Source of the DNA: an uncultured archaeon
GTDB lineage: Archaea > Thermoproteota > Nitrososphaeria > Nitrososphaerales > Gagatemarchaeaceae
DNA length: 64,000 nt
Direction: 5' to 3'
Assembly (NCBI GenBank): GCA_963799775.1
Contig: CAWCYD010000003.1
Location: forward strand, 1,216,001 to 1,280,000
A program made the translations under genes and the position numbers. Below, in pieces: positions 7,255 through 22,939 of this stretch. The notes under the pieces are model-generated. The model did not search any database, was not told where the DNA came from, and saw nothing but the letters and a program-made list of their open reading frames with translations. The stretch's first letter is position 1, and each line of letters opens with the position of its first letter.

Positions 7255-9808
7255 GTGGACAAGGAAGCAATCGCCGCGCTACCGGTGCAACAGGCGCTCG
7301 AGCAGCTCCACACCTCGGTCGAGGGCTTGAGTCAGAGTGAAGCGGAGAGCCATCGCGCGACCTCGGGCCTCAACGTCCTCACGAAGACCCGGCATACGGC
7401 TCTGGACGTCCTCGGAAGGCAACTGAAGAGCTCGCTGATCTACTTGTTGGCCGTTGCCAGCATCGTCAGCTTTGCCATTGGCGATCTCTCCGATGGCATC
7501 ATCATCGCCGTCATCCTGGTGATCAACGCGCTGCTCGGCTTTGCGCAGGAATACCGATCCGAGCGGGCCGTCGAGAAGCTCTCCACCCTCATCAGCAAAC
7601 GAGTGTCCGCCAGGCGAGATGGCAGGACAGTGCAGCTGGACCAGGCTCAGCTCGTGCCGGGCGACATCATCTTCGTGGAAGAAGGGGATGTCGTCTCTGC
7701 GGATTGCAAATTGCTCACGGCGGAGGGTCTGCAGGTCAACGAAGCGCAACTGACGGGGGAATCAGTGCCCGTCACCAAAGCGGTCCAGATCCGGAGCACC
7801 CCAGATTACATCCAGCGGCGACGCGTCTCTGCTCTTCACCGGCAGCGTGATCGAAAAGGGGAAGGCCACCGCCGTCGTCTACGCCATCGGCGATGGGACA
7901 GAGCTTGGGAAGATCGCCTCCCTCTCGACGCGCACGCGCAAGGTGACCCAATACCAAAAATCGCTGCAATCCTTCAGCTCCCTGCTGATTCGGGTCGTGC
8001 TCGTGACCCTCGCGTTCACGTTTCTGGCCAAGCTGCTGCTCACGCGCGATCTCACCCATCTGCCGGCGTTCCTGCTGTTCGTCGTCGCCCTGGCCATCGT
8101 CGCCGTGCCGGAAGCGCTGCCGGTGATTGCCACGACGACCCTCTCCACCGGGGCGATGCACCTGGCCAAGAAGCAGGTGGTCGTCAAACGGCTCTCCTCG
8201 CTGGAAGACCTCGGCAACGTCACGCTGCTTTGCACCGATAAGACGGGAACGCTGACCGAGGGGAAGATGAGCATCCAGAAGATCGTGGCGGACGACCCTC
8301 TGCGCTTGCAACGATTCGCCGCTGCCACCGTGAAGTCCCTGAGCGGAGCGGGCGTAGCGCGTCAGGACTCTTTCGATCTGGCCTTTCTCGCCTACATCCC
8401 GCCCGATATACAGGAGCAGGCCAAGGCGTACCTGCAGGTCCAGGCCCTTCCCTTCGATCCAGAGACGCGCAGGAGCTGCATGGTCATCGAAGATGCCAGC
8501 TCGCACGCCCGCTATCTGGTGGTGCTCGGCGCGGTCGAAGCGCTGCTGGCGGTCAGCGATTGCGAGGGGCCGCAGAAGGAGCGATATCTGGCGGAGGTGA
8601 CCAGCGACGGCGCGCAAGGGCTGCGCGACCTCGCCCTGGCCTATCGCGAGCTGCCTGTCTCTGGGCCCATCGACATCCCGGAGTACGACCAGCACCTGAC
8701 TTTTTTGGGATTCGTGACGCTCGCCGACCCGCTGCGGCCAACCGCGAAAGAGACCATCGAGCGGGCGAAAGCCCTGGGGGTGGCTGTCAAGATATTGACC
8801 GGAGACAGCAAGGAGGTCGCGGCGTACATCGGGAGGCAGATTGGACTGGGAGGCGAGGTGCACACCGGGGATGAGCTGGAGAAGATGCCTCCCGAAGAGC
8901 TGCAGCGCGTTGCGGACAGCTGCGACGTCTTCGCGCGCGTCTCCCCCGCCCAGAAGTTCGCGATCATCGAGGCCCTCAAGCGCGGCCACGTCGTCGGCTA
9001 CCAGGGCGACGGGATCAACGACGCGCCGGCGCTCAAGATGGCGGACGTCGCTCTCGCGGTGGACAGCGCGACGGACGTGGCGAAGGAGAGTGCCGACATC
9101 GTCCTACTGGACCAAGACATGGGCGTGATCATCAACGGCATTGAAGAGGGGCGAACCATCTTCCTCAACATCGACAAGTACCTGAAGTACACCATGGTGG
9201 GGAACTTCGGCAACCTGTTTGCGCTCGTAATCCTCTACCTTCTCTCGCTCAACCTGCCGTTGCTCCCCGTGCAGTTGCTGTTGACCAGCCTCATCACCGA
9301 TGTCCCGCTTATCACCATCGCTTCCGACCGCGTAGACACCAAGGAGGCCATGAGGCCGGAGAAGTACAACACGCGGTCGCTGATGTCGATCTCGCTGGTG
9401 CTCGGCTCGTGCACCGCGCTTTTTGAGCTGCTGTACTTTGAGCTCGTCAGCTCCCGGTCGCTGCCTTTCGTGCAGACCGGCATGTTTCTTTTTCTCACCT
9501 TGCTTCAGTTCATCGTCATCGTTTCAATACGGAACCATTCTTACTTTTGGAGAGGCGTGAGGCCATCGTTTCTCTTAGCCGCAGCCGTCTTGCTGGCGTT
9601 CTTCGGCTCGTTTGCCCTCCCCTATATCCCCTTCACGGCTCGCCTGTTCTCGTTCACGCCTCTGGCTCTGAGAGACCTTGCGGTCATCGTAGGGCTGGCG
9701 CTGGTGTACCTTGTTGCCCTAGACGCGATCAAAGTCAGGTACTACAGGCGAGCGGACAAAGAAGGTTCGCCCTCGCTCGACGGGCAGAAATCTTCCCAGA
9801 AGAGATGA
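7255..9808 (+). CDS. P-type cation-transporting ATPase (MgtA-like), one frameshift near 7790-7830
   Basis: LTGES, VPEALP, CTDKTGTLT, FDPETR, ILTGD, GDGINDAP split across two overlapping ORFs. Confidence 0.9.
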
Positions 9809-10135
9809 CCGCGAGGTGCGTGTCCATCCAAGGCCAGGTGAGGCTTCGAGGGTTGCATTGGTTTATCCGATCTCCGCTAGTTCTGAGCAAGGATTATGGC
9901 TTTCTCTATCGGGAATAATCCAGCTAGGACGCCAGAGTACGGCGCAGTCCCTGATGTCACCGCAACTTGTCTCCGGACCTAGGTCCTCACTATTCTTTTT
10001 CCTGCTCGACGGTTCTTGACGAGCCCTTTCCCTCCGGGTGTCTCGACTGCGCGTGTCTTCGCCGCAGTCATCCTGCCGCCTCTGCGTTTTGTTGTGTTCC
10101 GAATCTCAAGACGTTGAGTAGAGCACCTGATCTAC

Positions 10136-10429
10136 TCAGGTGTGAGCCGAGGTCTGGGTCGCGAGCAGCGCGCTGCGTCCGAGCAGCTTCTTGTCCAGGA
10201 TGAAGATGATCACCTGGTCGCCCACTTCGACGCCAGCGTCTCCGCCGATCGGCTGGACGACGAACTTCCCGCCTCCGGTTAGCCTCGCAACCGTCGCTTC
10301 GACGACCGCGACGCCGGTCTTGGACTTGAAGACCGTCGCCCTCTCCCTGCCCCCTCCGGCCCTGGACTCGTTTCTGCCAGTGTCGGACGTCCGTTCTCTC
10401 TCGATTTCTCTTTCTGTGTCTGTTGACAT
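10136..10429 (-). CDS. Small hypothetical protein, possibly AbrB-like
   Basis: GGKFVVQP...GVEVGDQVIIFI resembles a swapped-hairpin motif. Confidence 0.35.
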   Translation of the reverse strand: MSTDTEREIERERTSDTGRNESRAGGGRERATVFKSKTGVAVVEATVARLTGGGKFVVQPIGGDAGVEVGDQVIIFILDKKLLGRSALLATQTSAHT

Positions 10430-10606
10430 ATCAGGTCACTAGCGATCATATCGCAAGAGCGATTAAAACCCGGGTGACGATTCCCAGGATTGAGAATAGG
10501 GTCCGGAAGTCCTTTGAGAGATTGAATCGGACTGGGTGGTTCATCATTCGTAGATGACTCCTTTTGGACAATTACGGCCAAACAAAGTTCATAATGAGCT
10601 TATTAT

Positions 10607-10636
10607 TGGCGGGACCGGCAGGGTTTGATGCAAAAA
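10607..10636 (-). repeat. tRNA-Arg 3'-end repeat R1 (start of a type A arm)
   Basis: TGGCGGGACCGGCAGGGTTTGATGCAAAAA; compare 15011. Confidence 0.85.
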
Positions 10637-10700
10637 CGCAGCTAGAAGGTAGAATCCTGGAAGATTCCCCGCAATTGTCCTGGCGAACGAGAGGGGCGCA

Positions 10701-11012
10701 CTAAGGCTTCTTTATCCAGACCGCCGAATCCTCGACTTTGACCTGAAAGGTCGGCTCGGGCTTTTGTGCCGGACCAGCTACCACTTCCCCAGTCTTCATG
10801 TCGAACTTAGATCCGTGCCACGGGCATTGGATCACGGAACCTGTGAGCTTTCCCCTTCCAAGAGGCCCGCCCACGTGCGTGCATTTGTTCGCAACGGCAT
10901 ACATTTCGCCCTCTAGGTTGGCGACCACTACATCTATGCCGCTCACCTTCACCACCTTCATGGAGCCCACGGGAACTTCGGATGCTTTGGCGACCTCCTC
11001 GAACCCTTCCAT
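10701..11012 (-). CDS. Rieske [2Fe-2S] ferredoxin
   Basis: CTHVGG...CPWHGSKFD. Confidence 0.95.
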   Translation of the reverse strand: MEGFEEVAKASEVPVGSMKVVKVSGIDVVVANLEGEMYAVANKCTHVGGPLGRGKLTGSVIQCPWHGSKFDMKTGEVVAGPAQKPEPTFQVKVEDSAVWIKKP

Positions 11013-11112
11013 AACCTTCTTGCCATCCCGAGGATAGGTCGCCCGAGTAATTCTGCTTTTCCATCTGCTTGCCCGGTCGAATGCACGACGGAGGGTGAAA
11101 TACTAGGTGTTT

Positions 11113-11160
11113 TGGCGGGCCCGACAGGGCCCACCCCTGAATAGATTCTCAATGTGGAGT
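11113..11160 (-). repeat. tRNA-Arg 3'-end repeat R2 (type B arm)
   Basis: TGGCGGGCCCGACAGGGCCCACCCCTGAATAGATTCTCAATGTGGA. Confidence 0.85.
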
Positions 11161-11310
11161 CCCGGGCTCCACGCGGCGGGCAAGCCGTCAAGTCGCCGCA
11201 TCAAAATGACTACAAACTCGGCCATGGAATCGGCTCTCTCAAACGCCCGAGAAGCTTCTTCGATTGGCCGACTCTGAATTTCCAACCTTAGATGAGACGG
11301 GGATGTCGGC

Positions 11311-12357
11311 TCAGACTTTAGGAAGACTAGCGAAGCGCGACCGCTGGTAGCCTGCGAACACACCCTCGACCCCGGTCAAGACCACCATCACCCTGACCCT
11401 TCCGTGCATGTTCTCTTCGACCCTAGCACCCCAGACGATCTTCACTCCTGGTCGGAGAGCTGTCGTTATCCTCTCGCCCGCGGCTATGACCTCCTCAAGC
11501 CTTAGGTCGCTTCCCCCCGTTACGTGCACTAGCACTCCATACGACTTCGACGCATCGCGCAAGTCCAGGAGCCTACTTTCTATTGCCTTCATAGCCGCTT
11601 TCTCGACTCTTCCCTTACCAGAAGATTCGCTTACACCTATAGCGGCCAGCCCTCTTCGCTCCATTATCTCCTTCAGGTCCGAGTAGCTGATGTTGATGAG
11701 AGAAGCCGTGGTAATGGTCTCAGTGATGCCTTTCACAAATAGGCCGACCAGGTCGCTTGCTACTCCGAGCGCCTGCTCGAGAGGTAAATTACCTGCGACT
11801 TTGGAGAGCCTGTTATTGTCGATCGCGACCACCGTGTCGCAATACTCGCGAAGCTTCTCGAGACCCTTCCTGGCTTTTTTGTACCTGTATCTCTCAAAAG
11901 AGAAGGGAAGCGTGACGACGCCGATTTTCAGGATGCCTTCTCCTGGGAGCGCCTTCGCGAGCACGTTTATCGCGCCAGTACCAGTCCCTCCCCCCAAACC
12001 CGCACATAGGATGAGTATGCTCGACCCAGCAACCGCCTTTCTCAACTCCTGAAGACTCTCGTACGCCGCCTTTTCACCCACATCAGGGTATCCACCGGCA
12101 CCTTGACCGTGAGTGAGCTTCTCACCGATGAGAATCCTCCTGTCGGCTCTTGTCACGCTCAGGTGGACTGCGTCGGTGTTCGCGGCAATGAGTTTGCCTC
12201 CAGCCATGCCCTTCTCCTTTAACCAAGAAACAATGTTGCTACCGGCTCCACCCAAGCCAACGACGCAAACCTTGGGACGTGCGGCCATCATAGCCGCTAC
12301 TATCCTATCATCTTCCGACAAATCGTCGGATGCTGGATCTCCCTCCATAACATTCAC
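11311..12357 (-). CDS. ftsZ: Cell division protein FtsZ (divergent T7 loop)
   Basis: VVGLGGAGSN, AANTD, GQGAGG, GLGGGTGTGA, PFSFE, IDNNRL. Confidence 0.9.
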   Translation of the reverse strand: MNVMEGDPASDDLSEDDRIVAAMMAARPKVCVVGLGGAGSNIVSWLKEKGMAGGKLIAANTDAVHLSVTRADRRILIGEKLTHGQGAGGYPDVGEKAAYESLQELRKAVAGSSILILCAGLGGGTGTGAINVLAKALPGEGILKIGVVTLPFSFERYRYKKARKGLEKLREYCDTVVAIDNNRLSKVAGNLPLEQALGVASDLVGLFVKGITETITTASLINISYSDLKEIMERRGLAAIGVSESSGKGRVEKAAMKAIESRLLDLRDASKSYGVLVHVTGGSDLRLEEVIAAGERITTALRPGVKIVWGARVEENMHGRVRVMVVLTGVEGVFAGYQRSRFASLPKV

Positions 12358-12518
12358 GTCTTTCGAGTATCATTCATAAAGAATAAGCAATGTGCACGAT
12401 GTAAACGAAGCTGAAGTCTGTCCATCAATTCAGGTCATAGCCAGCTCCTTTCGGTCAGCTTGAGGTTCGAACCCAGCAGAGAGAGTTCGAGAGCAACGAA
12501 GGGTTTGGACTCGAACGG

Positions 12519-12601
12519 TGGCGGGCCCGGCAGGATGCGATTAGATAATTAAGCGAATCCGAGGCTGAGCAATTCGAGTCTCAAATTCGCTGCGACCGCA
12601 C
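12519..12601 (-). repeat. tRNA-Arg 3'-end repeat R3 (type C arm with 11-6-11 palindrome)
   Basis: TGGCGGGCCCGGCAGGATGCGATTAGATAATTAAGCGAATCC...TCAAATTCGCTGCGACCGCAC. Confidence 0.85.
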
Positions 12602-12895
12602 CTAACTCTCTCTTTTCAGTAGGCGCAGCCTACCTTGAGAAATCGACCTTAGGACTCCAGGAGACCCCTGAAAGAGATCTAACCGCCGCAAGAAATTTTA
12701 GGGGAGAATCACTGCAGCTAGAGTTGGACTTCCGCTTCGCCGCCTACGGCTCAAGGCATCCTAGTTCGGGGAAACCGAACTGCTAAGTGTGGCAAGTGAA
12801 AGGTAGTATTTGCAGTCAAGACCAAATTCACATTCACAGGGGCAAAGAGAGCGCACATTTTGTATCTCGCTCTGCTCAGCACTCGAGCCCTGACG

Positions 12896-13189
12896 CTAGA
12901 CTTGAGGCTCGATTTCCGCTTCCTTGACGAAGCTCTGGGCCTTCAGGGTCTTCAGAAGCTCCTCTGGAGTCACCTTTGCGTTGGCCATTTCCAGATAGAA
13001 GAGGTCGTACCCCGTCTTCTTGTCGTCCGAGCACTCGATTCCTCCCGCGAGAATATCGATGTTCCTCTCGCCCAATATCATGGCAATCTTGGCAAGAATC
13101 GAAGGGCGAGATTCGACCGTGAGGTAGAGGTCGAAGACCTTTTCGCCGGGGGGCGATACTACCCTCATCGACCTTAGCCGCTCCGACAT
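12896..13189 (-). CDS. Stand-alone ACT-domain protein
   Basis: LTVESRPSILAKIAMILGERNIDI, an ACT signature. Confidence 0.75.
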   Translation of the reverse strand: MSERLRSMRVVSPPGEKVFDLYLTVESRPSILAKIAMILGERNIDILAGGIECSDDKKTGYDLFYLEMANAKVTPEELLKTLKAQSFVKEAEIEPQV

Positions 13190-13276
13190 AAATCGGACTT
13201 GCCCATGGTAGGATTTAAGGGGAGCGGCTGCGAGATTGCGAATCCGGCTTTGACAGTCTAATTGAGCGTGAAAAGT

Positions 13277-13324
13277 TGGCGGGCCCGGCAGGGCCCGCGC
13301 CTGAACAGGTTCTGAAAGTGGATT
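13277..13324 (-). repeat. tRNA-Arg 3'-end repeat R4 (type B arm)
   Basis: TGGCGGGCCCGGCAGGGCCCGCGCCTGAACAGGTTCTGAAAGTGGA; abuts the vapC stop. Confidence 0.9.
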
Positions 13325-13702
13325 TCACTTTCCAATCTCTTTCTGCAGTAGCTCGGCCTGGCGCTTGTCGAACGTAGCGAGGTCTGAGGTTAGCTCTAGC
13401 GCTAGAGCGATGAATATCGCGTCGTATATCGAGCGGTGGCTCTTGGCCGCCAGAGAGTATCCATGCTTCATCAGTTCTTCCCCAGGACGAATCACCCGAA
13501 TTCTTCCCGATTCTACCAACCCATAGAGTATGGACACGTAGGGTACCCCGTCGCCCAGATCTTTTATCAGGAATTGATGCTTCCACACTGCGTTGACCGC
13601 TTCATACAGGGCCAAGTCGACCGTAATCAGAATGTCCTCTTCAAGCAGTTCCTTGCGCCTAAGAAGCCCCTCGACTATGTAGCTGCTGTCCGCAACCTTC
13701 AA
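13325..13702 (-). CDS. vapC: PIN-domain toxin VapC
   Basis: VADSS, LALYEAVNA, SIYDAIFIALA, LATFDKRQ. Confidence 0.9.
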   Translation of the reverse strand: MKVADSSYIVEGLLRRKELLEEDILITVDLALYEAVNAVWKHQFLIKDLGDGVPYVSILYGLVESGRIRVIRPGEELMKHGYSLAAKSHRSIYDAIFIALALELTSDLATFDKRQAELLQKEIGK

Positions 13703-13917
13703 CGTCTTCTGTCCTCGTTAATTCGCCTGACTTCTTCGGCGGTCGTCGTCCTAATCTCGTTACTCCGTTGGAGCTTCTCTAGCTTTCCGATGAGCTCGTC
13801 AGACTTCCTCGTGCTCAAGTAGAGTTCGAGCGCCTCTCTGACCGACTTTGAAAGCGCTCCGTGTTTGAGGAGCCTCTTCTTTTCTTCATCTGAAACCCGG
13901 ACGGTAATGGTAGGCAT
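13699..13917 (-). CDS. vapB: Ribbon-helix-helix antitoxin VapB
   Basis: MPTITVRVSDEEKKRL...SKSVREALE; overlaps the vapC start. Confidence 0.85.
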   Translation of the reverse strand: MPTITVRVSDEEKKRLLKHGALSKSVREALELYLSTRKSDELIGKLEKLQRSNEIRTTTAEEVRRINEDRRR

Positions 13918-13947
13918 GTCTTACTCTGCGTAAGACACTGTGTCTTA
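13918..13947. promoter_or_regulatory. Overlapping palindromic operators of vapBC
   Basis: GTCTTAC-N5-GTAAGAC and TAAGACA-N3-TGTCTTA between the ATG and the repeat. Confidence 0.6.
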
Positions 13948-13953
13948 AGTTTT

Positions 13954-14065
13954 TGGCGGGCCCGGCAGTTTCCGCACCAAAAATGGTGCTAGAAATGGTT
14001 CCGTTTCGCGGGTTCATGCCTCAATGGATTCGAACTCCCGAGGAGTCGGCTTGTCTCGCTCATTC
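13954..14065 (-). repeat. tRNA-Arg 3'-end repeat R5 (type A arm, ~112 bp)
   Basis: About 90% identical by eye to 21496-21606. Confidence 0.9.
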
Positions 14066-14097
14066 ATGCTTTCGCTCGAATCGATGTCAGGAAGCTC

Positions 14098-14379
14098 CTA
14101 TGCGTCAGGAAAGAATCTCCTCATGAACGCCATTATCTCTTCGCTCTGCCTCGGGTTGAGCGAGACCTGTAGACCGTAGGATGTCGGCTTGGGAACTACT
14201 GCACCCTGACGGACCAGCTGCTTCGCCATCTGCTCCACACGCTTCAGTCCGTGCTTTCCGAGTTCTGATTCCTTCCATCCTTTCTTGAGGTTATCGAGAG
14301 CTGTATGACTTGCTCCCCAGTTTCCTCTTTTGTGGAGCTTGAACAGGAGTGTCGCCTTGATATCATCGTCAGAAAGCAT
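14098..14379 (-). CDS. Small hypothetical protein (winged-helix-like)
   Basis: Clean 93-aa ORF divergent from an HTH gene; GNWGASHT and KPTSYGLQVSLNP. Confidence 0.6.
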   Translation of the reverse strand: MLSDDDIKATLLFKLHKRGNWGASHTALDNLKKGWKESELGKHGLKRVEQMAKQLVRQGAVVPKPTSYGLQVSLNPRQSEEIMAFMRRFFPDA

Positions 14380-14449
14380 AAGTTCACTTATGATACTTCG
14401 AAGGTTCTTATTTAAATACTCGCCAGGTTAGTTAGTTACAGGGAGAAAA

Positions 14450-14794
14450 ATGACATACAAGCCTGACGAGACATTGTTGTTGAAATACCTTGGAGCGAGC
14501 CCAACGCTTCGAATCATTGATTTTTTCCTGGACAACCCACTCTCTGACTACTCGAAGAACGAGATCGCGAAGAATCTGGCGATGAGCCGTGTGACGTTTT
14601 TCAAGTACTGGAAGCAGTTGGCGAAGTCCGGGGCTGTTAAGCCAACGAGAGAGATCGGAAGGGCAACTTTGTACAAGCTGGACAAGGAGAACGACGTGGT
14701 GAAGCAGACGATCAAGCTCGATATGACGCTTGCCAGAAAGTCGATGGAAAAAGCGGCCGAAGAATACAAGAAACCGATAACTATGCGAAGCTGA
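14450..14794 (+). CDS. Winged-HTH transcriptional regulator
   Basis: SPTLRIIDFFLDN...YSKNEIAKNLAMSRVT...IGRATLYKL. Confidence 0.8.
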   Translation: MTYKPDETLLLKYLGASPTLRIIDFFLDNPLSDYSKNEIAKNLAMSRVTFFKYWKQLAKSGAVKPTREIGRATLYKLDKENDVVKQTIKLDMTLARKSMEKAAEEYKKPITMRS

Positions 14795-14891
14795 ATTCAT
14801 ACCCTTTTTGCATCTCTTTCATTCCGTCCAGACCTCCTTTCCCTCTCGCGAGAGAACGACACGAAATCCAATCAGGCTGAGAATATACTAT

Positions 14892-14925
14892 TGGGCCGGA
14901 AGGGATTCGACCCCTTGACCTGCCG
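14892..14925 (-). repeat. 3' fragment of a different tRNA (Ile/Met-like), possible att remnant
   Basis: Reverse complement CGGCAGGTCAAGGGGTCGAATCCCTTCCGGCCCA has a T-stem, T-loop and acceptor strand; no 5' half is present. Confidence 0.7.
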
Positions 14926-15010
14926 AGAAATCTAGGTAATCGCGGGCATCCGGCTAGATAGAGCGTGTTTCAACCCCTAATGAGCGCATGCAGTCTACTT
15001 CCAGGTAGTT

Positions 15011-15095
15011 TGGCGGGCCCGGCAGGATTTGATGCAAAAATGGCGCCAGAAAGGGTTCCATTTCGCGGGTTCATGCCTCGATGGTTTCGAACCCG
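15011..15095 (-). repeat. tRNA-Arg 3'-end repeat R6 (type A arm; longest tRNA match)
   Basis: GCGGGCCCGGCAGGATTTGA identical to the tRNA into the T-loop, then type A sequence. Confidence 0.9.
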
Positions 15096-15125
15096 TGTTG
15101 GCTAGTGAATCCCTGAGCAGAGATG

Positions 15126-15578
15126 CTACAAAGCGTTGACTTGAAGGGGCTGAAGATGGGAGCTTCGACCGAATTTCGTTGCTAAGGTCTGACGAACCTT
15201 TCCTAGCCAAGCAGGAGATTGTTTGTATTTGCAGGATTGCAGGTTGTGCAGCCTGGCGAAGACCAAATATACGAAAGTCATCGTGCCCTTTCCTCCGGGA
15301 GCGCCGGTCATCATCATTGAAAAGACGGGCCCGGCCGGGAACAGACTAATCAGTTCTGGGAGCGCATTGGCTCCGCTGAGAACTTTTCTGTCTGGGAGCA
15401 CAATATGAAAGGACCGGTATCGGAGATTGCGGGGCACTGCGTCTAGCAATCCTGATGCATCAGCTATGTCCAGCGGGACAAAATCGACCTTCCGGCGAAT
15501 GTCTAAGATGGCCACGACCTGCTTGAACTTCGCACAGGGCCCGCAATCCGCGTCATAGGCCATGACATACCTGGACAA
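15126..15578 (-). CDS. DCC1-like thiol-disulfide oxidoreductase
   Basis: YDADCGPC motif, FHIVLPD...SGANA; start approximate. Confidence 0.8.
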   Translation of the reverse strand: MSRYVMAYDADCGPCAKFKQVVAILDIRRKVDFVPLDIADASGLLDAVPRNLRYRSFHIVLPDRKVLSGANALPELISLFPAGPVFSMMMTGAPGGKGTMTFVYLVFARLHNLQSCKYKQSPAWLGKVRQTLATKFGRSSHLQPLQVNAL

Positions 15579-15872
15579 GCAATTTCGCCTGCCAATTATT
15601 CTGACGACGGTCACATAAAAATATGCCCCGAGCCTGGATGGTTCAGGGACTGAGGGAGTCCCAGGCGCCCGAATCTCGGCAGCGCAGTAGAGGCTCCTTT
15701 CACGGCACTTTGTTCCCAAAGGCCTCTGTCAAAGCTTGAGGTCCCTCCTGCGGCCTCTCAAGGGTCGGGGCCTAAATCGAACTCAGACAATTGGGTACGC
15801 GGCTAGTGGAAAAAACGGTTAGACCATAATTCCGCCTCATTCTGACACAATACGCTCAAACGTGGCTATTGT

Positions 15873-15896
15873 TAGCGGGCCCGGCACGGCCCGCCA
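15873..15896 (-). repeat. tRNA-Arg 3'-end repeat R7 (type B-like hairpin)
   Basis: TAGCGGGCCCGGCACGGCCCGCCA. Confidence 0.8.
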
Positions 15897-15923
15897 CGCA
15901 TGGGTAGCAAATCCGGCTCGCAT

Positions 15924-16631
15924 TCAAGCGTTTAGTTTTGCAATTTCGCCGTCCCAAGTTGCGGTGAGAACCCCCTCTCTGCTCAAGTAAAACACTATGC
16001 CGTCCAGATATGGTATCCACTTGGTCTCCTTGAATCGTCCGCCAAAGATGGTCTCTATCAGGACTATCAGCCCGTAATCGTGCCCCACCCACAGCCGCAG
16101 GAGCGGGGCTTGACGGGCCTTCAAGTCCTTGCTAACGCTGCTTACGACGAACTGCTTTACCTCCGAAGGGGGTTTCATCATCCCGAAAGGAAGGCTCCCG
16201 TCCAGCCATTCTCTAAGGAATGGCAGTCCTCCCACCTTTCCCCTATGCGACTCCATCGCATTTCTGTCCTTGGCGAAAAAATGGGTCACGGCCAAGGAAT
16301 CGTCTATTCCAATGTCTGATATGGTACCAGAATTCATCTGTGAGTAGCCATTCATGATGCCGGTCCCAGTCTCTACGCAGCGGGGGACGGGACTATAGCC
16401 TACGACGAGGTTCAAACCTCTAGGGAGCGACTGGCCGAATCTCTTCGATTCGCTGTGCCCGTGAGGAGTCAACCCTGCGACCATATTCGGATTGGCGACC
16501 TCGCCTCTTCGACCTTGATCCCTAACGGAATGTCTGAGGATGATCCCCATCCGATCGGACTCCATGGAATTGATAACGTCAATCAGTCGGTCTCCGTAAG
16601 GGATTTCTTCGGCGGGCCTCTCAGGTTCCAA
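15924..16631 (-). CDS. Histidine phosphatase family protein
   Basis: ILRHS, LTPHG, SPVPRCVETG, VGHD. Confidence 0.85.
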   Translation of the reverse strand: MEPERPAEEIPYGDRLIDVINSMESDRMGIILRHSVRDQGRRGEVANPNMVAGLTPHGHSESKRFGQSLPRGLNLVVGYSPVPRCVETGTGIMNGYSQMNSGTISDIGIDDSLAVTHFFAKDRNAMESHRGKVGGLPFLREWLDGSLPFGMMKPPSEVKQFVVSSVSKDLKARQAPLLRLWVGHDYGLIVLIETIFGGRFKETKWIPYLDGIVFYLSREGVLTATWDGEIAKLNA

Positions 16632-16724
16632 CTCTCAAACGTCCGATAGGGCATGAATATGAACCATGTTCAATTTCCTATCCCATGCCCAAGAGGTTCG
16701 AATCCATTTCTGGGGAAGTTTTGG

Positions 16725-16766
16725 TGGCGGGCCCGGCAGGATTTGCTTAACTAATTAAGCGACACC
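16725..16766 (-). repeat. tRNA-Arg 3'-end repeat R8 (type C arm)
   Basis: TGGCGGGCCCGGCAGGATTTGCTTAACTAATTAAGCGACACC. Confidence 0.9.
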
Positions 16767-16796
16767 TTGATCTCGGTGTTTCGATTCCCCGAGAAA

Positions 16797-16970
16797 TCAA
16801 TCATTGGAGCGAACAGAATGTTGGCCCAACCTTACCAGAATCAAGAGGCAAGAAATGAAGCCGCATCCTAGTATCACGACGACCGATTCAGACGCGGTCC
16901 CGTTGAGCTCTATCGACGTTGCGACCATCGTGAAAGCCCAAACCAACGAAATGGCAACGTTTGCGGTCAT
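16797..16970 (-). CDS. Small two-TM peptide (57 aa, not in the ORF track)
   Basis: Manual translation MTANVAISLVWAFTMVATSIELNGTASESVVVILGCGFISCLLILVRLGQHSVRSND. Confidence 0.4.
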   Translation of the reverse strand: MTANVAISLVWAFTMVATSIELNGTASESVVVILGCGFISCLLILVRLGQHSVRSND

Positions 16971-17201
16971 GAACCTAGTGGGGATGCCGCTGTTCTTCGA
17001 CCCGGTCTCTGAGCGACTCGCGGGGTTCTTGGGCCGACGAGCCTTAGGCTAAAAGTTAGCGTCAATCGCGGCAACGCTCGAACAAAGTCAGACCGACCAA
17101 AACAGGTCGTTCAAATCTCTGCGACCGCACACCAATCACATCAGACGGCCGGAATCCTCGAAATCCTCTTTGGGAACCGATTCTCCGAGGGCGGACCGCG
17201 G

Positions 17202-18374
17202 ATGAAGCGAAAAGGAGTCTGCTACGATGTAGGGCGGGTCATGCTTGGGGCCGATTGGCGACCTAAATTCGACCCTCGAGCCGTCCACCGGGAACTCGAA
17301 ATCATCAAGACCGACATGCACTGCAATGCCGTTAGAATATGCGGCCTCGACATCGATAGGCTCATGACCGCGAGTGAGGACGCCCTGTCACAAGGGCTGG
17401 AGGTCTGGCTATCTCCCGAGATGTGGGACAAAAGCCAGGATGAGACCTGCGAATACATCGCGAGGGCGGCGGAGCGGGCGGAGGGGCTCCGTCAACGGTG
17501 GCCCGGAAAGCTGGTCTTCAGTGTGGGCTCCGAGCTGAGCCTCTTCTCTCAGGGGATGATCGAGGGCAAAAACGTCTTTGACCGGATATCCCGTTCCTCG
17601 TTCTTTAGCGATATATCGGCCGGGACGTACAACGGCCCGCTCAATCTGTACCTGTCGAATCTGAGCGAGGCCGCGAAGAAGTCGTTCCGTGGGCCGCTCA
17701 CCTACTTCTCCTTGCCGTTCGAAGCTGTCGACTGGAAACCGTTCGATTTCGTCGGGGTAGACCATTACAGGGACGCGCAGAACAAAGTCGCCTATGGTCG
17801 GATGATAAGCAAGTACAACGCATTCGGCAAGCCTGTGATTGTAGGGGAGTTCGGGTGCTGCACTTTCCGGGGCGCGGAGCTGCTCGGAGGAAACGGCTTC
17901 ATGATAACCTTCGGGATGATTGAAGGCCTCCTCGGGCCAAACCAGAAGCTTCCCAAGATGTTCTTGGACATGGCGCATGTCCCGCCCCGAGCCGACGGGC
18001 ACTACATCCGTGACGAGGAGCTCCAGGCACGCGAGCTGGTCGATCAGCTGGGGGTGCTCGACGCAGCGGGGGTTGAGGGCGCGTTCGTGCAAACCTTCGT
18101 GGTTCCTAACTCCCCGTACCGCTCGGACCCCAGGTACGACACCGACATGGCGAACTTTAGCCTGGTGAAGAGCTTCCAGGAGGCAGAAACGGCGGAAGAG
18201 TTCAGGAGACAGACCATCCGTGGGGCCAGGGAAGTGATTGGGGTGGACCTCGACCCCCGCGTTCTGGATGGTTTTTCAGGTCGAATGGGCGAGCATGGAG
18301 TGACATATCCGGATCTGCCGTGGGAGCCGAAGGAGTCTTTCAGGGCGGTAGCGGAGTATTATGCGAAACATTAG
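17202..18374 (+). CDS. TIM-barrel glycoside-hydrolase-like protein (family often annotated 'abortive infection protein')
   Basis: KGVCYDVG, HCNAVRICG, VGSEL, GKPVIVGEFG, WEPKESF. Confidence 0.75.
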   Translation: MKRKGVCYDVGRVMLGADWRPKFDPRAVHRELEIIKTDMHCNAVRICGLDIDRLMTASEDALSQGLEVWLSPEMWDKSQDETCEYIARAAERAEGLRQRWPGKLVFSVGSELSLFSQGMIEGKNVFDRISRSSFFSDISAGTYNGPLNLYLSNLSEAAKKSFRGPLTYFSLPFEAVDWKPFDFVGVDHYRDAQNKVAYGRMISKYNAFGKPVIVGEFGCCTFRGAELLGGNGFMITFGMIEGLLGPNQKLPKMFLDMAHVPPRADGHYIRDEELQARELVDQLGVLDAAGVEGAFVQTFVVPNSPYRSDPRYDTDMANFSLVKSFQEAETAEEFRRQTIRGAREVIGVDLDPRVLDGFSGRMGEHGVTYPDLPWEPKESFRAVAEYYAKH

Positions 18375-18480
18375 GAAAAAATAACTTCGTGTTGAATCCT
18401 GTTGGAACCCGACGCAATCTGAACTTAAAGTTCAAGTTGCTGCCACCGCACAGTTCGAATTCAACAGACCGCGTTTCGGA

Positions 18481-18563
18481 GGATTCGCTTAGTGATTTAA
18501 GCGGGCCCAGGCAAGAATTCGGCTCGTCGCAATCTAGGTGAGCGTGAAAGGTTGGCAGGCCCC
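18481..18563 (-). repeat. Compound junction: 11-6-11 palindrome plus two degenerate tRNA-end repeats (R9, R9b)
   Basis: GGATTCGCTTA-GTGATT-TAAGCGGGCCCAGGCA and TGAGCGTGAAAGGTTGGCAGGCCCG (compare 13263-13287). Confidence 0.75.
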
Positions 18564-20792
18564 GATGGTCTAGCGCCGAATGTCATGTTCTTTCGTGTGA
18601 GGAAGGAAATGATGAGAAGGGAGGCGAGAAGCAGAGGAACGAGCATTACTGTCGGGAACTCCGGAACGGTTGACGATGTCGTAGTCTGGGGATCGCCGAT
18701 GACCAAAGGCGAACCCGTTAGACTGGCGACCGGGATATCTCCGCAGACCATGCCAAGGGAGCTGTTCGTGCTGGCTGAATCCGATATTGCCGCAGCAGCG
18801 CTCCAAGCACCGGCCGAGTAATATTCGATCAAGGTTTTCGAACCTACATACGCGCTCGACACGCATGTGTGCGCCGTCCCCCCTGTAATCCCGGAGATGC
18901 TGAGGTCGTAGAACTTCAAGGCCGCACCGCTTGCGGGGCCCAGAGAAACTGTGCCCGTGTTAGAAGGTTGAGCAGCCAGCTGCTGTGTGTTTATGGTTGC
19001 TGTGGCGCCGCTCGTTCCGGAGACCCCGACGCTGATTCCCGTGGTCGGGAATGACTGGGTCGGGACCGAACCTGAGGAAACGGCCGCGGAACCTGCTTGG
19101 GTCGACTGGCATGTGTCGACGACCGGGTTGGGCGACACCGGAGTCGTTGAATCGTTTCTGAAAGTCCCGTTACAGGCGTTGTTTATGGTGCCGGAGTTCG
19201 AGATTGTCGCTAGGTCGAAGTTGGTGAAGGAACCGGAGTTGGCCACAGTACCCCCCATCATGTTGGTTAGAGTGGCACCGACGAGCGCGCCACTGGCGAG
19301 CGCGCCGTTTATGAAGGTGGCACCGTAAACGTTCGTGATCACTCCGGAGGCGTTGTTGTTCAGAGTGCTCCAGACTCGGACGAAGCCGCCCGCGTTGTTC
19401 GTTATGGTCCCGCTGTTGGATGTATGATATGCAAATGTCACACTGCCCAGGTTGGATATAGTCCCAAAGTTGGCAACGACAGAGTCGAAAGATATTGTTC
19501 CTGTGTTGGAGATCATGCCCTTGTTGACGATGTTGCCGCCCGCATCATTGGTATCGTAGGTGAAGGTGCCGGAATTGGCGATTGTGCCCGTGTTGGTGTT
19601 GGTGAAGCTCTGCTCGTTCGTCATCGTGGCGCCCTGGTTGTTGTTGATCGTGCCCGAGTTGGTCGCGATGCCTGTCCCCGGTGATCCGTAGAAGCCAAGG
19701 CTGCCTCCCTTGTTGTTGGTGATGGTTCCCGCATTGTTGAAATTGTAGAAGCTGTTGAAAGTGCCGCTGTTGGTGATTGTTCCCCCTGCGTTGTTGGTGA
19801 CTGTGGACGGCCCAAAAGCGGTAATGATGCTGCCGGAGTTTGTTATCTGCCCTCCTGGGTCGCCCGTGCTGTCTGGACCAGCCTGCGTCGTAATGAAACC
19901 GTCGCACTCGATATTGGCGCCGGCGTCCACGTCGACCTTCCCGCTGTCGCTGACGTACAAGGTGACGCCGGTCGGGAGGTACAGCTCAGCGCTCGGCGAT
20001 ATCTCGAGCACGGTTGCGATTCCGGCGTAGCCTACCGTGAGAGTGCTCCCTGACATCATGTTAAAGGTCCCCAGTGCTGGTAAAGGTGCCAGAAAAGTAG
20101 GGCGTGCCCAATGGCGCGGTCGAGCCCGTCACCTTTACCGTCTGGCCTGAGTACAGCTCCATCCAGCCGCCGTTGTTGATCGTGCCGGGGTTGAGGAGAA
20201 CCCCCGTTCCGAGTCCGTAGTTATCGTCCTGCAGGGCACCGCCCAGGAGGTTGTCAATCGTCCCCTGGTTGGAGAAGGTTCCCCCGCCCGCGTAGATCAG
20301 ACCGCCGGCGCTGTTCGTGAGCGTCCCCGTGTTCGTGAACGTGCAGTCGCTCGATATCGTCCCTGCGTTCGTTATGGTGCCTGAGCTTGTTACCGTGCCA
20401 CAGACGGTGCTGGCGATAGCGCTCTGGATCTGCCCCGTGGAAGTGATCTTCATGACTCCGGAGTTGGTAATCGTGCCCGCGGAGTCCGACATGATGGCAG
20501 ATATCGTGAATGTCGCACCTGGGCCCACGGTAAGAGTCGCCCCGGGGAATATCGACAAGGAGGTTCCCGCCGGGAGCTGCCCGCTCGCTGCAACATAGCA
20601 GTCGACTGTAGCGTTGGACCACGATCCTCCCAGGCTCGCGCAATCGGCGGTGCTTTGGTGCAGGGAGCCAGGATTGTTGCCGTTGAGATTGTATGAGACT
20701 TGGGCACCCGCGTCAGGAGGCAGAAACGCAAGGATTGACACAAACGCCAGAATCACTGCAAGAACCAGTGGGGCTTTGTGAGAAACCCTCAA
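18497..20792 (-). CDS. Secreted beta-solenoid (GTITN-repeat) surface protein with PEF-CTERM anchor; +1 frameshift near 20070
   Basis: Signal peptide, NxGTIxN repeats, VPEFP-TM-RK tail; deleting one G of GGGG joins the two ORFs (TGTFNMMSG). Confidence 0.8.
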
Positions 20793-20833
20793 CCGCTCGT
20801 AATTTCAAGATTCAGTCTATTAACCATGATGTC

Positions 20834-20883
20834 TGGCGGGCCCAGGCAGAGCCCACCCCTGAACAGGTTCTCAAAGCGAATTC
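20834..20883 (-). repeat. tRNA-Arg 3'-end repeat R10 (type B arm)
   Basis: TGGCGGGCCCAGGCAGAGCCCACCCCTGAACAGGTTCTCAAAGCGAA. Confidence 0.85.
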
Positions 20884-20904
20884 CTAAGGATTGCAAGGAC
20901 TGGT

Positions 20905-21409
20905 TTAGTAGAACCCGGAGGCGACCATGAAGACCGATGTGACGATGAGAAGGAGTACCGTCAGGGTGGCCAGGTCAGAGGCTCGTTTTGAGCGTCTTTG
21001 GAAAGTCCGGAGGTGGCTGATGTTGACCGGCGGCCTGCATTTCCTTTATCATTTTTATGGCTCTCAGTTGGATTGGGACGGCAACGAATTCCGATATCAA
21101 GAAAGCAATGAAACCGATGGCGAGCCCGATTGTGAGATACATGCCGAAAGAGGTCGAGAAGGAGAGAACCTTGAAGTCCCCCCCGGAGTAGTTATAGAGG
21201 AAAAGCACTCCGAACAGTATGGTTGTGCCTGCCGTGATTTGGAAGAACCGGACTACTCTGGGGACGACCTTCACGAGGAACTCTCCCGAGCTTGCGGGTG
21301 AAAGCTTCGCGAGAGCCGGTCCTACCACAAAGGCGAACATGATCCCGCCCCCCAGCCATCCAATTGCTGAAATGACGTGGAGCCAGGCGAGAATCGCGGT
21401 GAGAAGCAA
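20905..21409 (-). CDS. Four-TM membrane protein (CopD/DUF4149-like), frameshift near 20990
   Basis: WLHVISAIGWLGG...FVVGPAL; fourth TM continues in another frame. Confidence 0.65.
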
Positions 21410-21495
21410 GTGGGAACAAAATCTTGTCCGACTATATGAATATGATTTCTTGGGCTTCTTCGCCGCGTTCTGAAAATTACCGCTGAGGAGAAATT

Positions 21496-21606
21496 TGGGG
21501 GCCCGGCAGTTTCCGCACCAAAAATGGTGCTAGATTTGGTTCCGTTTCGCGGGTTCATGTCTCGATGGATTCGAACTTCCGAGGAGTCGGTTCGGCTCAC
21601 TCATTC
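21496..21606 (-). repeat. tRNA-Arg 3'-end repeat R11 (type A arm)
   Basis: Near-identical to 13954-14065; contains the stop codon of the upstream NTase gene. Confidence 0.9.
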
Positions 21607-22323: not shown

Positions 22324-22327
22324 TCGA

Positions 22328-22939
22328 TCACTCGTCGTATTTTATTCCAAGACCGAGCTTGTATTCTTCGTCGAGCATCTCAAGAGCCGGCTCGTACGCG
22401 TAGATATTTTTCTTGGCGAATTCAATGGTCTCTTTGAGCGGCTCAACCCTCAACCCTTCGACCGTTTCTGATTCGATTCTCTTTGCTGGATGCATCAGAT
22501 AGAAGACCCCGAAGACAGTCTCTTTTGGAATCATATCGACAAGGAATGATTTCTTGCCATTGTTTCTGAAGAATCGTTTCCACTTTTCCACGTCTTTTTC
22601 GATGACCTTCAAATGGATTGGATAGAAACCGAAGAACCTATCCACATTATACCCTCCCCTAGTCCAAGCGAATACTGCATCCACGTCTGACAGTGCGTAT
22701 GGGTATTCTGCCTTCTTCAGAAGCTCGTATGCACCGCCTACGTCATTTCTCATCGTCACGTAATCATCTACCGACTTGACCCTGTACTTTCCGTATTCCA
22801 GATGCTCGAGCATCCCCTTCTTCGCCATGTCGTGCAATACCTTTCGGGGATTAGGGCTGGAGAACGTTGCGGCAAACTCTCCGCTGGTGAACTCCCTCCT
22901 CCACTTGCCGAGGATTGCCCAAAGTTCATAGTACGACAT
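22328..22939 (-). CDS. AbiEi-like antitoxin with N-terminal wHTH
   Basis: RKVLHDMAKKGMLEHLEYGKY; lies 4 bp upstream of the NTase gene. Confidence 0.65.
   Translation of the reverse strand: MSYYELWAILGKWRREFTSGEFAATFSSPNPRKVLHDMAKKGMLEHLEYGKYRVKSVDDYVTMRNDVGGAYELLKKAEYPYALSDVDAVFAWTRGGYNVDRFFGFYPIHLKVIEKDVEKWKRFFRNNGKKSFLVDMIPKETVFGVFYLMHPAKRIESETVEGLRVEPLKETIEFAKKNIYAYEPALEMLDEEYKLGLGIKYDE

Follow-up and report, generated by a model that had tools for sequence, protein, structure and literature searches.

Inverted repeats fused to tRNA-Arg(TCG) 3'-end copies as probable att junction modules of archaeal integrative elements

Attachment sites and tandem accretion at tRNA genes are well known, as are integrase-less, att-flanked remnants of the CIME type and integron cassette arrays, in which short cargo units are divided by recombination-site repeats. 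Simple Xer/Cre enzymes cleave at the edges of a 6- to 8-bp spacer between inverted arms, and extra copies of recombinase half-sites lie beside the core pair, e.g., in the third element of FRT and the direct repeats of attI1. In text passages of PMC8371274, dif has a 6-nt spacer flanked on either side by an inverted arm of 11 nt. The SNJ2-type integrases of haloarchaeal pleolipoviruses, as portrayed in passages of PMC5861418, use a 14-bp core that exactly matches the 3'-distal part of a tRNA gene together with conserved P/P' arms, and their subfamilies each have a particular tRNA and a fixed distance from integrase gene to core. Integrated elements of Thaumarchaeota, in the corresponding passages of Krupovic et al. 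2019 (PMC6563490), enter the 3'-distal part of tRNA genes, carry att repeats of 8-26 bp (median, 17), and show tandem as well as nested integrations.

The locus described here lies in a 64-kb window, i.e., the whole stretch of archaeal DNA that was analysed. It resembles the thaumarchaeotal elements in its phylum-level hosts, the tRNA 3' target, and the short att repeats, and conserved inverted-repeat arms and the integrase family treated below are not described in the text passages of PMC6563490. With SNJ2 it shares a short core identical to the tRNA 3' end and flanked by conserved arms. Compared by description with passages of PMC5861418, however, SNJ2 needs two accessory proteins and has its core beyond the 3' terminus of the integrase gene, whereas the present core lies upstream of the integrase start, and the arms form two symmetric 11-6-11 modules. 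Literature searches for four arm motifs returned unrelated primer matches only.

Three sites in a tRNA-Arg(TCG) array

A sequence-only reading had described three inverted repeats with the geometry of tyrosine-recombinase sites, fused to tRNA-end repeats. All three were confirmed at the coordinates given there (Table 1); each has 11-nt arms around a 6-nt spacer, which is the dif geometry, and the fusion is real in that the arms run into copies of the tRNA-Arg(TCG) 3' end. Chance is excluded as their source. The consensus GGATTCGCTTA-N6-TAAGCGAATCC with up to three mismatches occurs exactly three times in the window (two mismatches at site 1, three each at sites 2 and 3), and 100 dinucleotide-preserving shuffles gave a mean of 0.00 and reached three matches in 0/100 cases. 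The genome-wide search proposed in the earlier reading retrieved the exact motif GCTTA-N6-TAAGC three times in 2.47 Mb, twice within the window, versus about 1.4 expected genome-wide from base composition.

Table 1. Coordinates of the inverted-repeat sites and associated features in the window
Feature	Position	Strand	Description
Site 1	12533-12560	+	Probable far-end ('type L') att module, antisense to tRNA; inner arm GGATGCGATTA, spacer GATAAT, outer arm TAAGCGAATCC
Site 2	16739-16766	+	Probable far-end module; inner arm GGATTTGCTTA, spacer ACTAAT, outer arm TAAGCGACACC
Site 3	18481-18508	+	Probable integrase-proximal ('type R') module; outer arm GGATTCGCTTA, spacer GTGATT, inner arm TAAGCGGGCCC
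tRNA-Arg(TCG)	23723-23798	-	Intact target gene, head of array
R3	12518-12536	+	tRNA-Arg(TCG) 3'-end copy, identity block at site 1
R8	16724-16742	+	tRNA-Arg 3'-end copy fused to site 2
R9	18501-18520	+	Decayed tRNA-Arg 3'-end copy, GCGGGCCC(A)GGCAAGAATTCGG
Further tRNA-Arg 3'-end repeats	10609-21509	+	All in the same orientation
Second tRNA 3'-end copy	12584-12602	+	CTGCGACCGCAC
Integrase-less remnant body	16767-18480		Between sites 2 and 3

The earlier reading needs one correction in that the three sites are of two kinds. In sites 1 and 2, the start of the left arm falls within a copy of the tRNA-Arg(TCG) 3' end, GCGGGCCCGGCAGGAT, and the repeat follows the tRNA end; at site 3, the order is reversed, and the right arm continues into the decayed copy R9. 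Each site has a spacer of its own. The outer arm of site 1 matches the family consensus perfectly, and the relative G017 has an orthologue of this site (L011:10496). Sites 2 and 3 are degenerate. The outer arm of site 2 has two changes, at positions kept in 19/20 and 18/20 far-end sites. Site 3 is followed by neither an integrase gene nor a TATA-like box, unlike the same layout elsewhere.

The array totals about 11 tRNA-Arg(TCG) 3'-end repeats, which separate one or two small genes each. With up to one mismatch, the core GCGGGCCCGGCAG has 19 matches genome-wide, and the 10 located at 10.6-23.7 kb of the window include the tRNA gene itself; an 11th copy at 20836 carries an inserted base. The further repeats, whose 13-nt cores start at 10609, 11115, 13279, 13956, 15013, 15875, 20836, and 21497, bear other arms of two classes, a 121-nt unit (class A) and the palindrome GGCGGGCCC-GGCA-GGGCCCGCC (class B). 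The elements are delimited by direct repeats with the sequence of the tRNA 3' end, as at att junctions. The decay of R9 comprises one inserted base plus mismatches, and G011 has a conserved counterpart. Additional copies of the second tRNA end at 17113-17131 and 18434-18452 are direct repeats flanking a 390-aa open reading frame (ORF); the real end of this tRNA is at C3:1670677, with a distal repeat at C3:1672529, and G011 shows the same nested layout.

The remnant body contains an 82-aa ORF (16804-17052, +) and the 390-aa ORF (17202-18374, +). The latter has no Pfam or NCBIfam match and looks by eye like a TIM-barrel hydrolase; its assignment as a transposase was dropped, as no family matched. 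A 96% identical copy is found at C2:211268-212417, where the ORF alone is common and the flanks are not. The array cargo also includes a PIN-domain gene, and the array on C2 has a full VapB/VapC-like pair. Split, permuted, or other tRNA-like genes at the sites were rejected: ARAGORN and Rfam find the genuine tRNA-Arg alone, Rfam (10000-24500, E <= 1) giving in addition a chance-level match on the opposite strand over the tRNA gene.

No integrase is encoded in the window, and all copies of the family in this genome lie elsewhere. An integrase adjoins the same motif in 29/30 related loci but none of the junctions in the window, and the latter are therefore orphan or remnant junctions. Given this absence and the degenerate state of sites 2 and 3, the three sites are orphan relics inside a tRNA-Arg(TCG) integration hotspot. 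The trans-acting recombinase that the sequence-only reading had envisaged is thus the only kind that could act on these arms.

Ends and integrase of the related elements

Of 36 related loci, the 30 that include the 5' end of the integrase gene were examined; they originate from MAGs of Nitrososphaerota, Bathyarchaeia, and Thermoplasmata. In 29 of them, the sequence 'tRNA end + CTTA-N6-TAAGNGAATCC' is located immediately upstream of the integrase gene, which is the layout of site 3, with the half-site coming after the tRNA-like 3' end; L051 is the divergent exception. The far end consists of GGATTCGCTTA-N6-TAAnTGCATCC fused to a tRNA-end repeat, as at sites 1 and 2. It is readable in loci with enough downstream DNA and was found 3-9 kb downstream of the integrase in L024, L025, L027, L028, L029, L030, L032, L044, and L052, and twice over this range in L031. 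In L023 and L030, the far-end module, core, and near-end module are adjacent to one another. Positions 1-6 and 8-11 of the outer arm are each kept in at least 18/20 far-end or 27/29 near-end sites. The spacer is A/T-rich and variable across these 29 near-end and 20 far-end sites, and the two ends of one element carry different spacers.

Within the genus, the exact motif GGATTCNCTTA-N6-TAA yielded 31 matches in 11/23 genomes, compared with 0 for the reversed control. Nine distinct exact copies occur in this genome, where a tRNA 3'-end fragment adjoins 10 of the 12 relaxed matches. The integrases P0003 and P0004, two copies of 429 aa each, start 31 nt past 'tRNA end + CTTAAACTCTTAAGAGAATCC', and the two copies in this genome that carry this arm type target another tRNA end, CCCTTCCGGCCCA. 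In total, the genome has three full copies and one split copy of the integrase family. A cognate integrase for tRNA-Arg(TCG) is putative at most here, judging from the target sequence of the known copies.

The 429-aa protein is assigned to the tyrosine recombinases by a paralogue bridge together with a predicted fold. In BLASTP, it aligns to a PF00589-positive paralogue encoded in this genome with an E value of 2e-43 and 26% identity over 407 columns; the alignment pairs R150, K195, R272, H299, and Y307, all of them invariant in 22 homologues, so that the R-K-(H)-R-H-Y catalytic set is present with Y269 at the position of the first histidine. Foldseek (E <= 0.001) returned 12 matches, 12/12 of them tyrosine recombinases, headed by archaeal XerA (4a8e, E 2.4e-5) and followed by Cre, IntI, and XerH; the AlphaFold model is mediocre, having a mean pLDDT of 66.8, with values of <50 at residues 234-277 and 298-314 that cover the catalytic region. 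The closest protein-atlas clusters are annotated as 'putative site-specific integrase' and 'Tyr recombinase domain-containing protein'. Searches of P0003, as a single sequence and as a profile, against Pfam, NCBIfam, PHROGs, and PDB sequences retrieved no recombinase, and an hhalign profile comparison with another integrase was insignificant. At E <= 1e-20, the integrase profile matched 65/151 sampled genomes of the order, among them the unpublished G126. The earlier proposal that the arms belong to a tyrosine-recombinase system is supported.

Position of the crossover and competing readings

Overall, the inverted repeats are in all likelihood attL/attR-type junction modules of mobile elements that insert at tRNA 3' ends and use an Xer/Cre-like integrase of approximately 429 aa. 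As deduced from the tandem junctions, the free attachment site would have a core of 15-18 bp identical to the tRNA 3' end, spanning the last two T-loop bases, the 3' strands of the T-stem and acceptor, and the discriminator. One 11-6-11 module would lie on each side, its inner arm overlapping the core and its outer arm, GGATTCNCTTA, being nearly invariant; at the integrase-proximal end, the outer arm would also abut the integrase promoter. Integration would leave one module at each junction: in far-end junctions such as sites 1 and 2, the module comes after a displaced copy of the tRNA end, and site 3 represents an integrase-proximal junction. Strand exchange would have to occur inside the tRNA-identical core rather than across the 6-bp spacers. 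The arms are probably half-sites to which the integrase would bind. As in FRT and attI1, there would be extra half-sites, in this case four alternating ones arranged symmetrically around a tRNA-derived core.

The modules are associated with the integrase, have a constant geometry, and hold a fixed position relative to the identity block, and homology to relatives breaks off at this block: orthologous DNA matches up to the tRNA-identical block and then diverges directly. For example, homology to G011 and G018 ends at R8 (15906-16741 versus L009; 15907-16739 versus L010), after which both have a class B arm in place of site 2, and the match of 11195-13968 to G017 is followed by an 11-6-11 module there versus a class A arm here. 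The left flank of R3 (12470-12517) corresponds to the native sequence that follows tRNA-Arg in G017 (12470-12536 versus L012, 92.6%) and that of R8 to the flank downstream of tRNA-Arg in G016 (16697-16745 versus L014). The crossover must lie in the 15- to 18-bp tRNA-identical block, which at site 1 is R3, and the exact cleavage points would fall within it. The 6-bp spacers cannot serve as a crossover region because they are outside this block and differ between sites and between the ends of one element.

An empty-site/occupied-site pair fixing the element boundaries was not found among the relatives. G011 was rejected as a clean empty site for the block 12487-15905 (its junction has no tRNA-end copy), and for the 6.9-kb element C3:1342061-1349006, four relatives keep the flanking gene but do not have the tRNA beside it, so that none provides an empty site. 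Public contigs over 10000-24500 contained no excision junction, only two runs covering minor fractions of the region (0.16 and 0.05), both solely as contigs; a contig from another sample that joins 13324 to 15910 represents a relative with a different cassette order and not an excision here.

Alternatively, the modules might be complete recombination sites, with an integrase dimer on both arms cutting at the spacer edges and modules of the same spacer recombining apart from tRNA integration, which would result in deletion, inversion, or cassette shuffling. In its predicted fold, the protein is similar to simple Xer/Cre enzymes, and its Foldseek-matched model revealed no separate arm-binding domain; by geometry alone, the modules therefore look like complete sites, equal to dif as described in passages of PMC8371274, which counts against the junction reading. 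It also fits that four far-end sites (C3:51421, 1342061, 1392192, and 1404446) share the spacer AATAAT and near-identical arms and that one tRNA end with an integrase copy sits 1.3 Mb from its tRNA. Complete sites are nevertheless improbable: at far ends, the inner and outer arms form a poor palindrome (TAAnTGCATCC versus TAAGNGAATCC), excision cannot use end spacers that differ within one element, the direct repeats bounding the elements correspond to the tRNA-identical block and not to the spacer, and the window has three spacers at three sites.

Somewhat less probable still is an operator or promoter function, in which a dimeric regulator or a self-repressing integrase binds the repeat and recombination is incidental. 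This option of the sequence-only reading holds in part, for the integrase-proximal layout only, where a TATA-like box (TTTATTA, CTTATTA, TTAAATA, or similar) comes immediately after the outer arm, 30-48 nt ahead of the integrase start, in 24/28 listed near-end sequences by manual count and in 20 by the A/T criterion of a script. It does not extend to the three window sites, none of which is followed by such a box; moreover, the same module is present at far ends with neither gene nor box behind it, and its register is fixed to the tRNA-identical core, not to the gene start.

A hairpin in RNA or single-stranded DNA (terminator, processing signal, or tRNA-like fold) would suit partly complementary arms with an A/T-rich loop in intergenic positions beside tRNA-like sequence. 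It is very unlikely, considering that the far-end consensus is mismatched at 3/11 arm positions with no compensating changes, that the outer arm is kept as a sequence, and that the above Rfam and ARAGORN searches find the genuine tRNA only. Host-XerA dif or dif-like chromosomal sites, the leading idea of the sequence-only reading, have the least chance of all: the 11-6-11 geometry and an XerA-like gene at C3:9004-9966 (NF040815, 151 bits, which falls short of the 220-bit cut-off) speak for them, but the sites are multicopy (nine exact ones, not one per replicon), fused to tRNA ends, and borne by mobile elements, the variable spacers lie outside the segment presumably exchanged, the spacer-adjacent bases TTA/TAA are the reverse of dif (as already seen in that reading), and the motif accompanies a 429-aa integrase, extended at its C terminus by about 100 aa, and not the XerA-like gene, within 1.5 kb of which none of these repeats was found.

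Meaning for archaeal mobile DNA

Like CIME remnants and integron arrays, the locus has short cargo between recombination-site repeats and no recombinase of its own. Unlike them, its intergenic repeats are tRNA 3'-end copies with at least three arm classes and not attC sites, as compared by description with generally known attC features, and there is no integron integrase. It is conceivable, though doubtful, that the tRNA-Arg(TCG) locus still operates as a cassette platform, as opposed to a graveyard, on which integrase-less units of 0.5-4 kb, equipped with a tRNA-end mimic and family arms, are moved in trans. If so, units would be captured, excised, and shuffled by family integrases encoded elsewhere in the genome, in an archaeal, tRNA-end-based analogue of integron/CIME cassette traffic.

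The phenomenon is real yet ordinary in kind, the sites being end-pieces of small archaeal elements that insert into tRNA tails. A free site of four alternating integrase half-sites around a tRNA-derived core, if true, poses the puzzle of a simple Xer/Cre-like enzyme with two extra symmetric half-sites beside that core. Adjacent to a tRNA end, GGATTCNCTTA-N6-TAA is a signature for the termini of integrative elements that form a widespread archaeal family and whose integrase is missed by standard domain libraries, and it would help to delimit mobile DNA and orphan att scars in MAGs of Nitrososphaerota, Bathyarchaeia, and Thermoplasmata.

Inverted repeats at tRNA ends and an associated integrase

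The three 11-6-11 inverted repeats of the window described by the sequence-only reading (sites 1 to 3) were all found with exactly matching sequences. Allowing up to three mismatches, GGATTCGCTTA-N6-TAAGCGAATCC matched the window at these sites only and was absent from each of 100 dinucleotide-preserving shuffles of it. The genome-wide search proposed for exact GCTTA-N6-TAAGC gave three copies in 2.47 Mb, two of them in the window, at ~1.4 expected from composition. With relaxed arms, 12 places were found in the source genome, 10 of which adjoin a piece of a tRNA 3' end, in some cases from a tRNA other than tRNA-Arg. The left arm begins inside the tRNA-end copy at sites 1 and 2 (GGAT, the T-loop/T-stem junction), whereas the right arm of site 3, TAAGCGGGCCC, continues into a decayed tRNA-end copy. 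Because the order of arm and tRNA end is opposite, two layouts have to be distinguished.

Both layouts recur around a 429-aa protein of the source genome, P0003. A genuine tRNA at C3:1349006 is directly followed by CTTAAACTCTTAAGAGAATCC, and the P0003 ORF begins 31 nt later; the arrangement is the same at its second copy, P0004. The other end of the P0003 element lies 6.9 kb off and reads, in tRNA sense, GGATTCTCTTA-AATAAT-TAATTGCATCC, followed by the repeated tRNA end. Relatives of P0003 are encoded at 36 loci in MAGs labelled Nitrososphaerota/Thaumarchaeota, Bathyarchaeia, and Thermoplasmata, and the 30 loci with the 5' end of the gene were examined. A half-site directly upstream of the integrase gene is present in all but the divergent locus L051 (29/30); the upstream sequences comprise a tRNA-like 3' end and then (C/T)TTA-N6-TAAGNGAATCC (near end). 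Where several kilobases downstream were present, a far end of the form GGATTCGCTTA-N6-TAAnTGCATCC plus repeated tRNA end was found (L024, L025, L027, L028, L029, L030, L031 [twice], L032, L044, and L052). In L023 and L030, the far-end module, core, and near-end module stand side by side, which is the form expected of a tandem junction or a free attachment site. Profiled across 29 near-end and 20 far-end sites, the module consists of a nearly invariant outer arm, GGATTCNCTTA, a variable A/T-rich spacer, and an inner arm that starts with TAA and continues as tRNA sequence. Exact GGATTCNCTTA-N6-TAA occurs 31 times, in 11 of 23 genomes of the genus; the reversed control had no match in these 23 genomes.

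The unit of tRNA end, arm, and integrase occurs twice in the source genome, 1.3 Mb apart. One of the two lacks the rest of the tRNA; tRNA-Arg(CCT) is close by, as is a far-end module in inverted orientation. This suggests a rearrangement or a secondary insertion.

P0003 was not recognised by Pfam, NCBIfam, PHROGs, and PDB sequence searches. A 430-aa paralogue from the same genome is above the Pfam cut-off for PF00589 and aligns with P0003 across 407 columns (E 2e-43), matching R150, K195, R272, H299, and Y307 of P0003, all invariant in 22 homologues; the first-histidine position is Y269. The AlphaFold model of P0003, for which this alignment was the input, is of moderate confidence (mean pLDDT 66.8), low in the catalytic region, and its 12 Foldseek matches at E <= 0.001 are all tyrosine recombinases, aligned over ~320-370 columns each, namely archaeal XerA (4a8e, E 2.4e-5; 5hxy), Cre, integron integrase 2a3v, and XerH. 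The nearest protein atlas clusters are named site-specific integrase or Tyr recombinase. The paralogue bridge, the predicted fold, and the atlas clusters together identify P0003 as a tyrosine recombinase, according to the model a simple two-domain Xer/Cre-type enzyme with a C-terminal extension of ~100 aa. Of the 151 genomes of the order that were sampled, 65, including the unpublished G126, matched the family profile at E <= 1e-20.

The earlier proposal of tyrosine recombinase sites holds insofar as the arms resemble binding sites of a mobile-element integrase system. A dif/XerA function is not supported; the repeats are arms tied to the mobile-element integrase.

Location of the crossover

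A crossover within the 6-bp spacer is not supported. The direct repeat common to the tRNA and the far end comprises 15-18 bp (ATCC-TGCC-GGGCCCG-C in tRNA-Arg). Since the spacers lie outside this block and are unequal at the two ends of one element (e.g., GACTAT versus ATTTCT in L025), they cannot be the overlap region of integration. Comparison with relatives points to the block itself. In G011 and G018, orthology to 15906-16741 extends as far as the tRNA-identical block, beyond which these genomes have an arm of another type (class B) in the place of site 2. Orthology of G017 to 11195-13968 likewise reaches the block 13953-13968, and an 11-6-11 module then stands where this genome has a class A arm. 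Judged from these ends of orthology, the recombination breakpoints are in or at the tRNA-identical block.

The free tRNA-Arg site would read, in antisense, outer GGATTCGCTTA – N6 – inner TAAGCGGGCCC – GGCA – inner GGATTCGCTTA – N6 – outer TAAGCGAATCC, i.e., four half-sites of alternating orientation, which have TAA..G on the spacer side and (A/G)(A/G)(T/C)CC on the other side in common. The two inner half-sites would lie on either side of the midpoint of the tRNA-identical core; one mimics the near-universal T-loop sequence CGAATCC. The integrase would bind all four, with the inner pair performing strand exchange in the core and the outer pair serving as accessory sites; the near-end outer arm would overlap the integrase promoter, too. 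A TATA-like box is located directly after this arm, 30-48 nt before the integrase start, in 24 of 28 listed sequences by manual count and in 20 by a scripted A/T criterion. A rival view, suggested by the Xer/Cre-like fold, treats every 11-6-11 module as a full site with cleavage at its spacer. It explains neither integration nor excision and is improbable, although modules that have the same spacer could react with each other in this way as a side reaction.

The GGCA at the centre of the proposed four-half-site core is also the centre of the class B units, in which a tRNA-end copy forming a GGCGGGCCC-GGCA-GGGCCCGCC palindrome precedes a conserved tail of 28 nt, CCTGAACGGGTTCTCAAAGTGGATTCC. A class B-like unit stands directly upstream of another integrase gene in G011 and G017; this gene represents a second subfamily within the family and scores 334 bits against the profile. 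Class B is therefore probably the arm of this subfamily. In a second array, on contig C2, class B units flank a VapB/VapC-like pair beside a split integrase copy. This copy, just after the pair, is broken into two reading frames around residue 313-316, which sets the region of the catalytic tyrosine apart. The same genome encodes a eukaryote-type topoisomerase IB. The class A repeat (121 nt; three copies, 69-100% alike) has the tRNA-Arg end at its start and includes a hairpin, GCACC-AAAAAT-GGTGC.

State and history of the array

The tRNA-Arg(TCG) gene is the sole tRNA in the region (ARAGORN and Rfam). Its 3' end reads GCGGGCCCGGCAG(GATTTG) on the plus strand, and all copies have one orientation. 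The 13-nt core has 19 genome-wide matches with at most one mismatch, 10 of them in the 13-kb array stretch, including the tRNA gene itself. For the whole source genome, ARAGORN listed 18 tRNA genes without and 37 with the intron option, several of the latter implausible, so that many tRNA genes are either intron-bearing or missed by detection.

Coordinates of the features (bare numbers, window; C2 and C3, contigs of the source genome)
Feature	Coordinates or start	Strand
Site 1	12533-12560	
Site 2	16739-16766	
Site 3	18481-18508	
tRNA-Arg(TCG)	23723-23798	-
tRNA-Arg 3'-end copies	10609, 11115, 12521, 13279, 13956, 15013, 15875, 16727, 21497	
Variant copy; decayed copy	20836; 18501	
Class A repeats	13953-14073, 15010-15130, 21494-21614	
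Class B units	11108-11162, 13272-13326, 20830-20884; C2:213391, 214113, 235609	
CTGCGACCGCAC copies	12584-12602, 17113-17131, 18434-18452	
CTGCGACCGCAC real tRNA end; distal repeat	C3:1670677; C3:1672529	
P-type ATPase ORF	7255-9808	+
FtsZ paralogue	11311-12357	-
390-aa ORF	17202-18374	+
Copy of 390-aa ORF	C2:211268-212417	
520- and 243-aa ORFs	18497-20792	-
Full-length family integrases	C3:47914, C3:1347668, C3:1415565	
Split integrase copy	C2:214895-216188	
430-aa paralogue	C2:20245-21537	
tRNA end + arm + integrase units	C3:47871 (P0004), C3:1348986	
Other end of P0003 element	C3:1342061	
Inverted far-end module	C3:51421	
Topoisomerase IB	C2:237976-239538	

Adjacent repeats are separated by one or two small genes, most of which are encoded on the minus strand. 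The cargo comprises a Rieske protein, an FtsZ paralogue, an ACT-domain protein, a PIN protein, a DCC1-like oxidoreductase, a 235-aa and a 390-aa protein, two haemagglutinin-repeat proteins, and a nucleotidyltransferase; an integrase gene is absent from the 64-kb window. G+C across the stretch is 0.47-0.58, down from ~0.60-0.65. The order of the units varies among genomes of the genus, and in one contig, from a different soil sample, 13324 is directly connected to 15910, indicating a relative without the intervening units.

The FtsZ paralogue, located between two tRNA-end repeats, is full-length (Tubulin and FtsZ_C domains) and has several weaker DNA matches elsewhere in the genome; G011 and G017 have its unit at 89-91% identity. 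The P-type ATPase ORF (653 aa) at the left border begins within the E1-E2 domain (profile position 76), overlaps an upstream 328-aa ORF in a different frame, and may be a frameshifted or truncated gene. The adjacent 520- and 243-aa ORFs contain degenerate repeats, with a 22-nt DNA motif occurring 12 times and a haemagglutinin-repeat match in the second, and probably represent one large surface/adhesin-like protein or a split one.

Of the three window sites, 1 and 2 represent far-end junctions and 3 a near-end junction. As expected of far ends, the left flank of the tRNA-end copy matches the native flank downstream of tRNA-Arg, for site 1 in G017 and for site 2 in G016. Outer arm and core of site 1 are perfect, and the site is conserved in G017. 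The outer arm of site 2 is changed at two highly conserved positions. The arms of site 3 are perfect, but its core has an inserted base and mismatches, and neither a TATA-like box nor an integrase gene comes after the site. Sites 2 and 3 are ordered and oriented like the two ends of a single element and enclose 1.7 kb (16767-18480) without an integrase. The arm variant of the window sites, TAAGCGAATCC (C at position 5), is that of elements in tRNA genes ending GGGCCCG, among them tRNA-Arg genes (L026, L028, L033, and L034). Since the two integrases of the source genome that carry this arm type target a different tRNA end, we read the window sites as orphan scars left by past integrations. Mobilisation of the units in trans by integrases encoded elsewhere is possible but less likely.

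Inside the segment between sites 2 and 3, two copies of a second tRNA 3' end, CTGCGACCGCAC, flank the 390-aa ORF as direct repeats, and G011 has the same nested layout but around a different, 200-aa gene. The arrangement resembles that of a cassette which entered a tRNA-end mimic on a different element. The 390-aa ORF, without a Pfam or NCBIfam match, has a 96% identical copy on C2 and 79-87% identical copies across the genus; their identity is limited to the ORF, and the flanks are not common.

For Thaumarchaeota and other archaea, previous reports describe short att cores at tRNA 3' ends as well as tandem arrays and the nesting of elements (PMC6563490, PMC8371274). SNJ2-type integrases have a tRNA-derived core of 14 bp with conserved P and P' arms on either side (PMC5861418). 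A full-text literature search with the four arm strings retrieved unrelated primers only. The finding in the window belongs to a known type of system and has a well-defined family signature.
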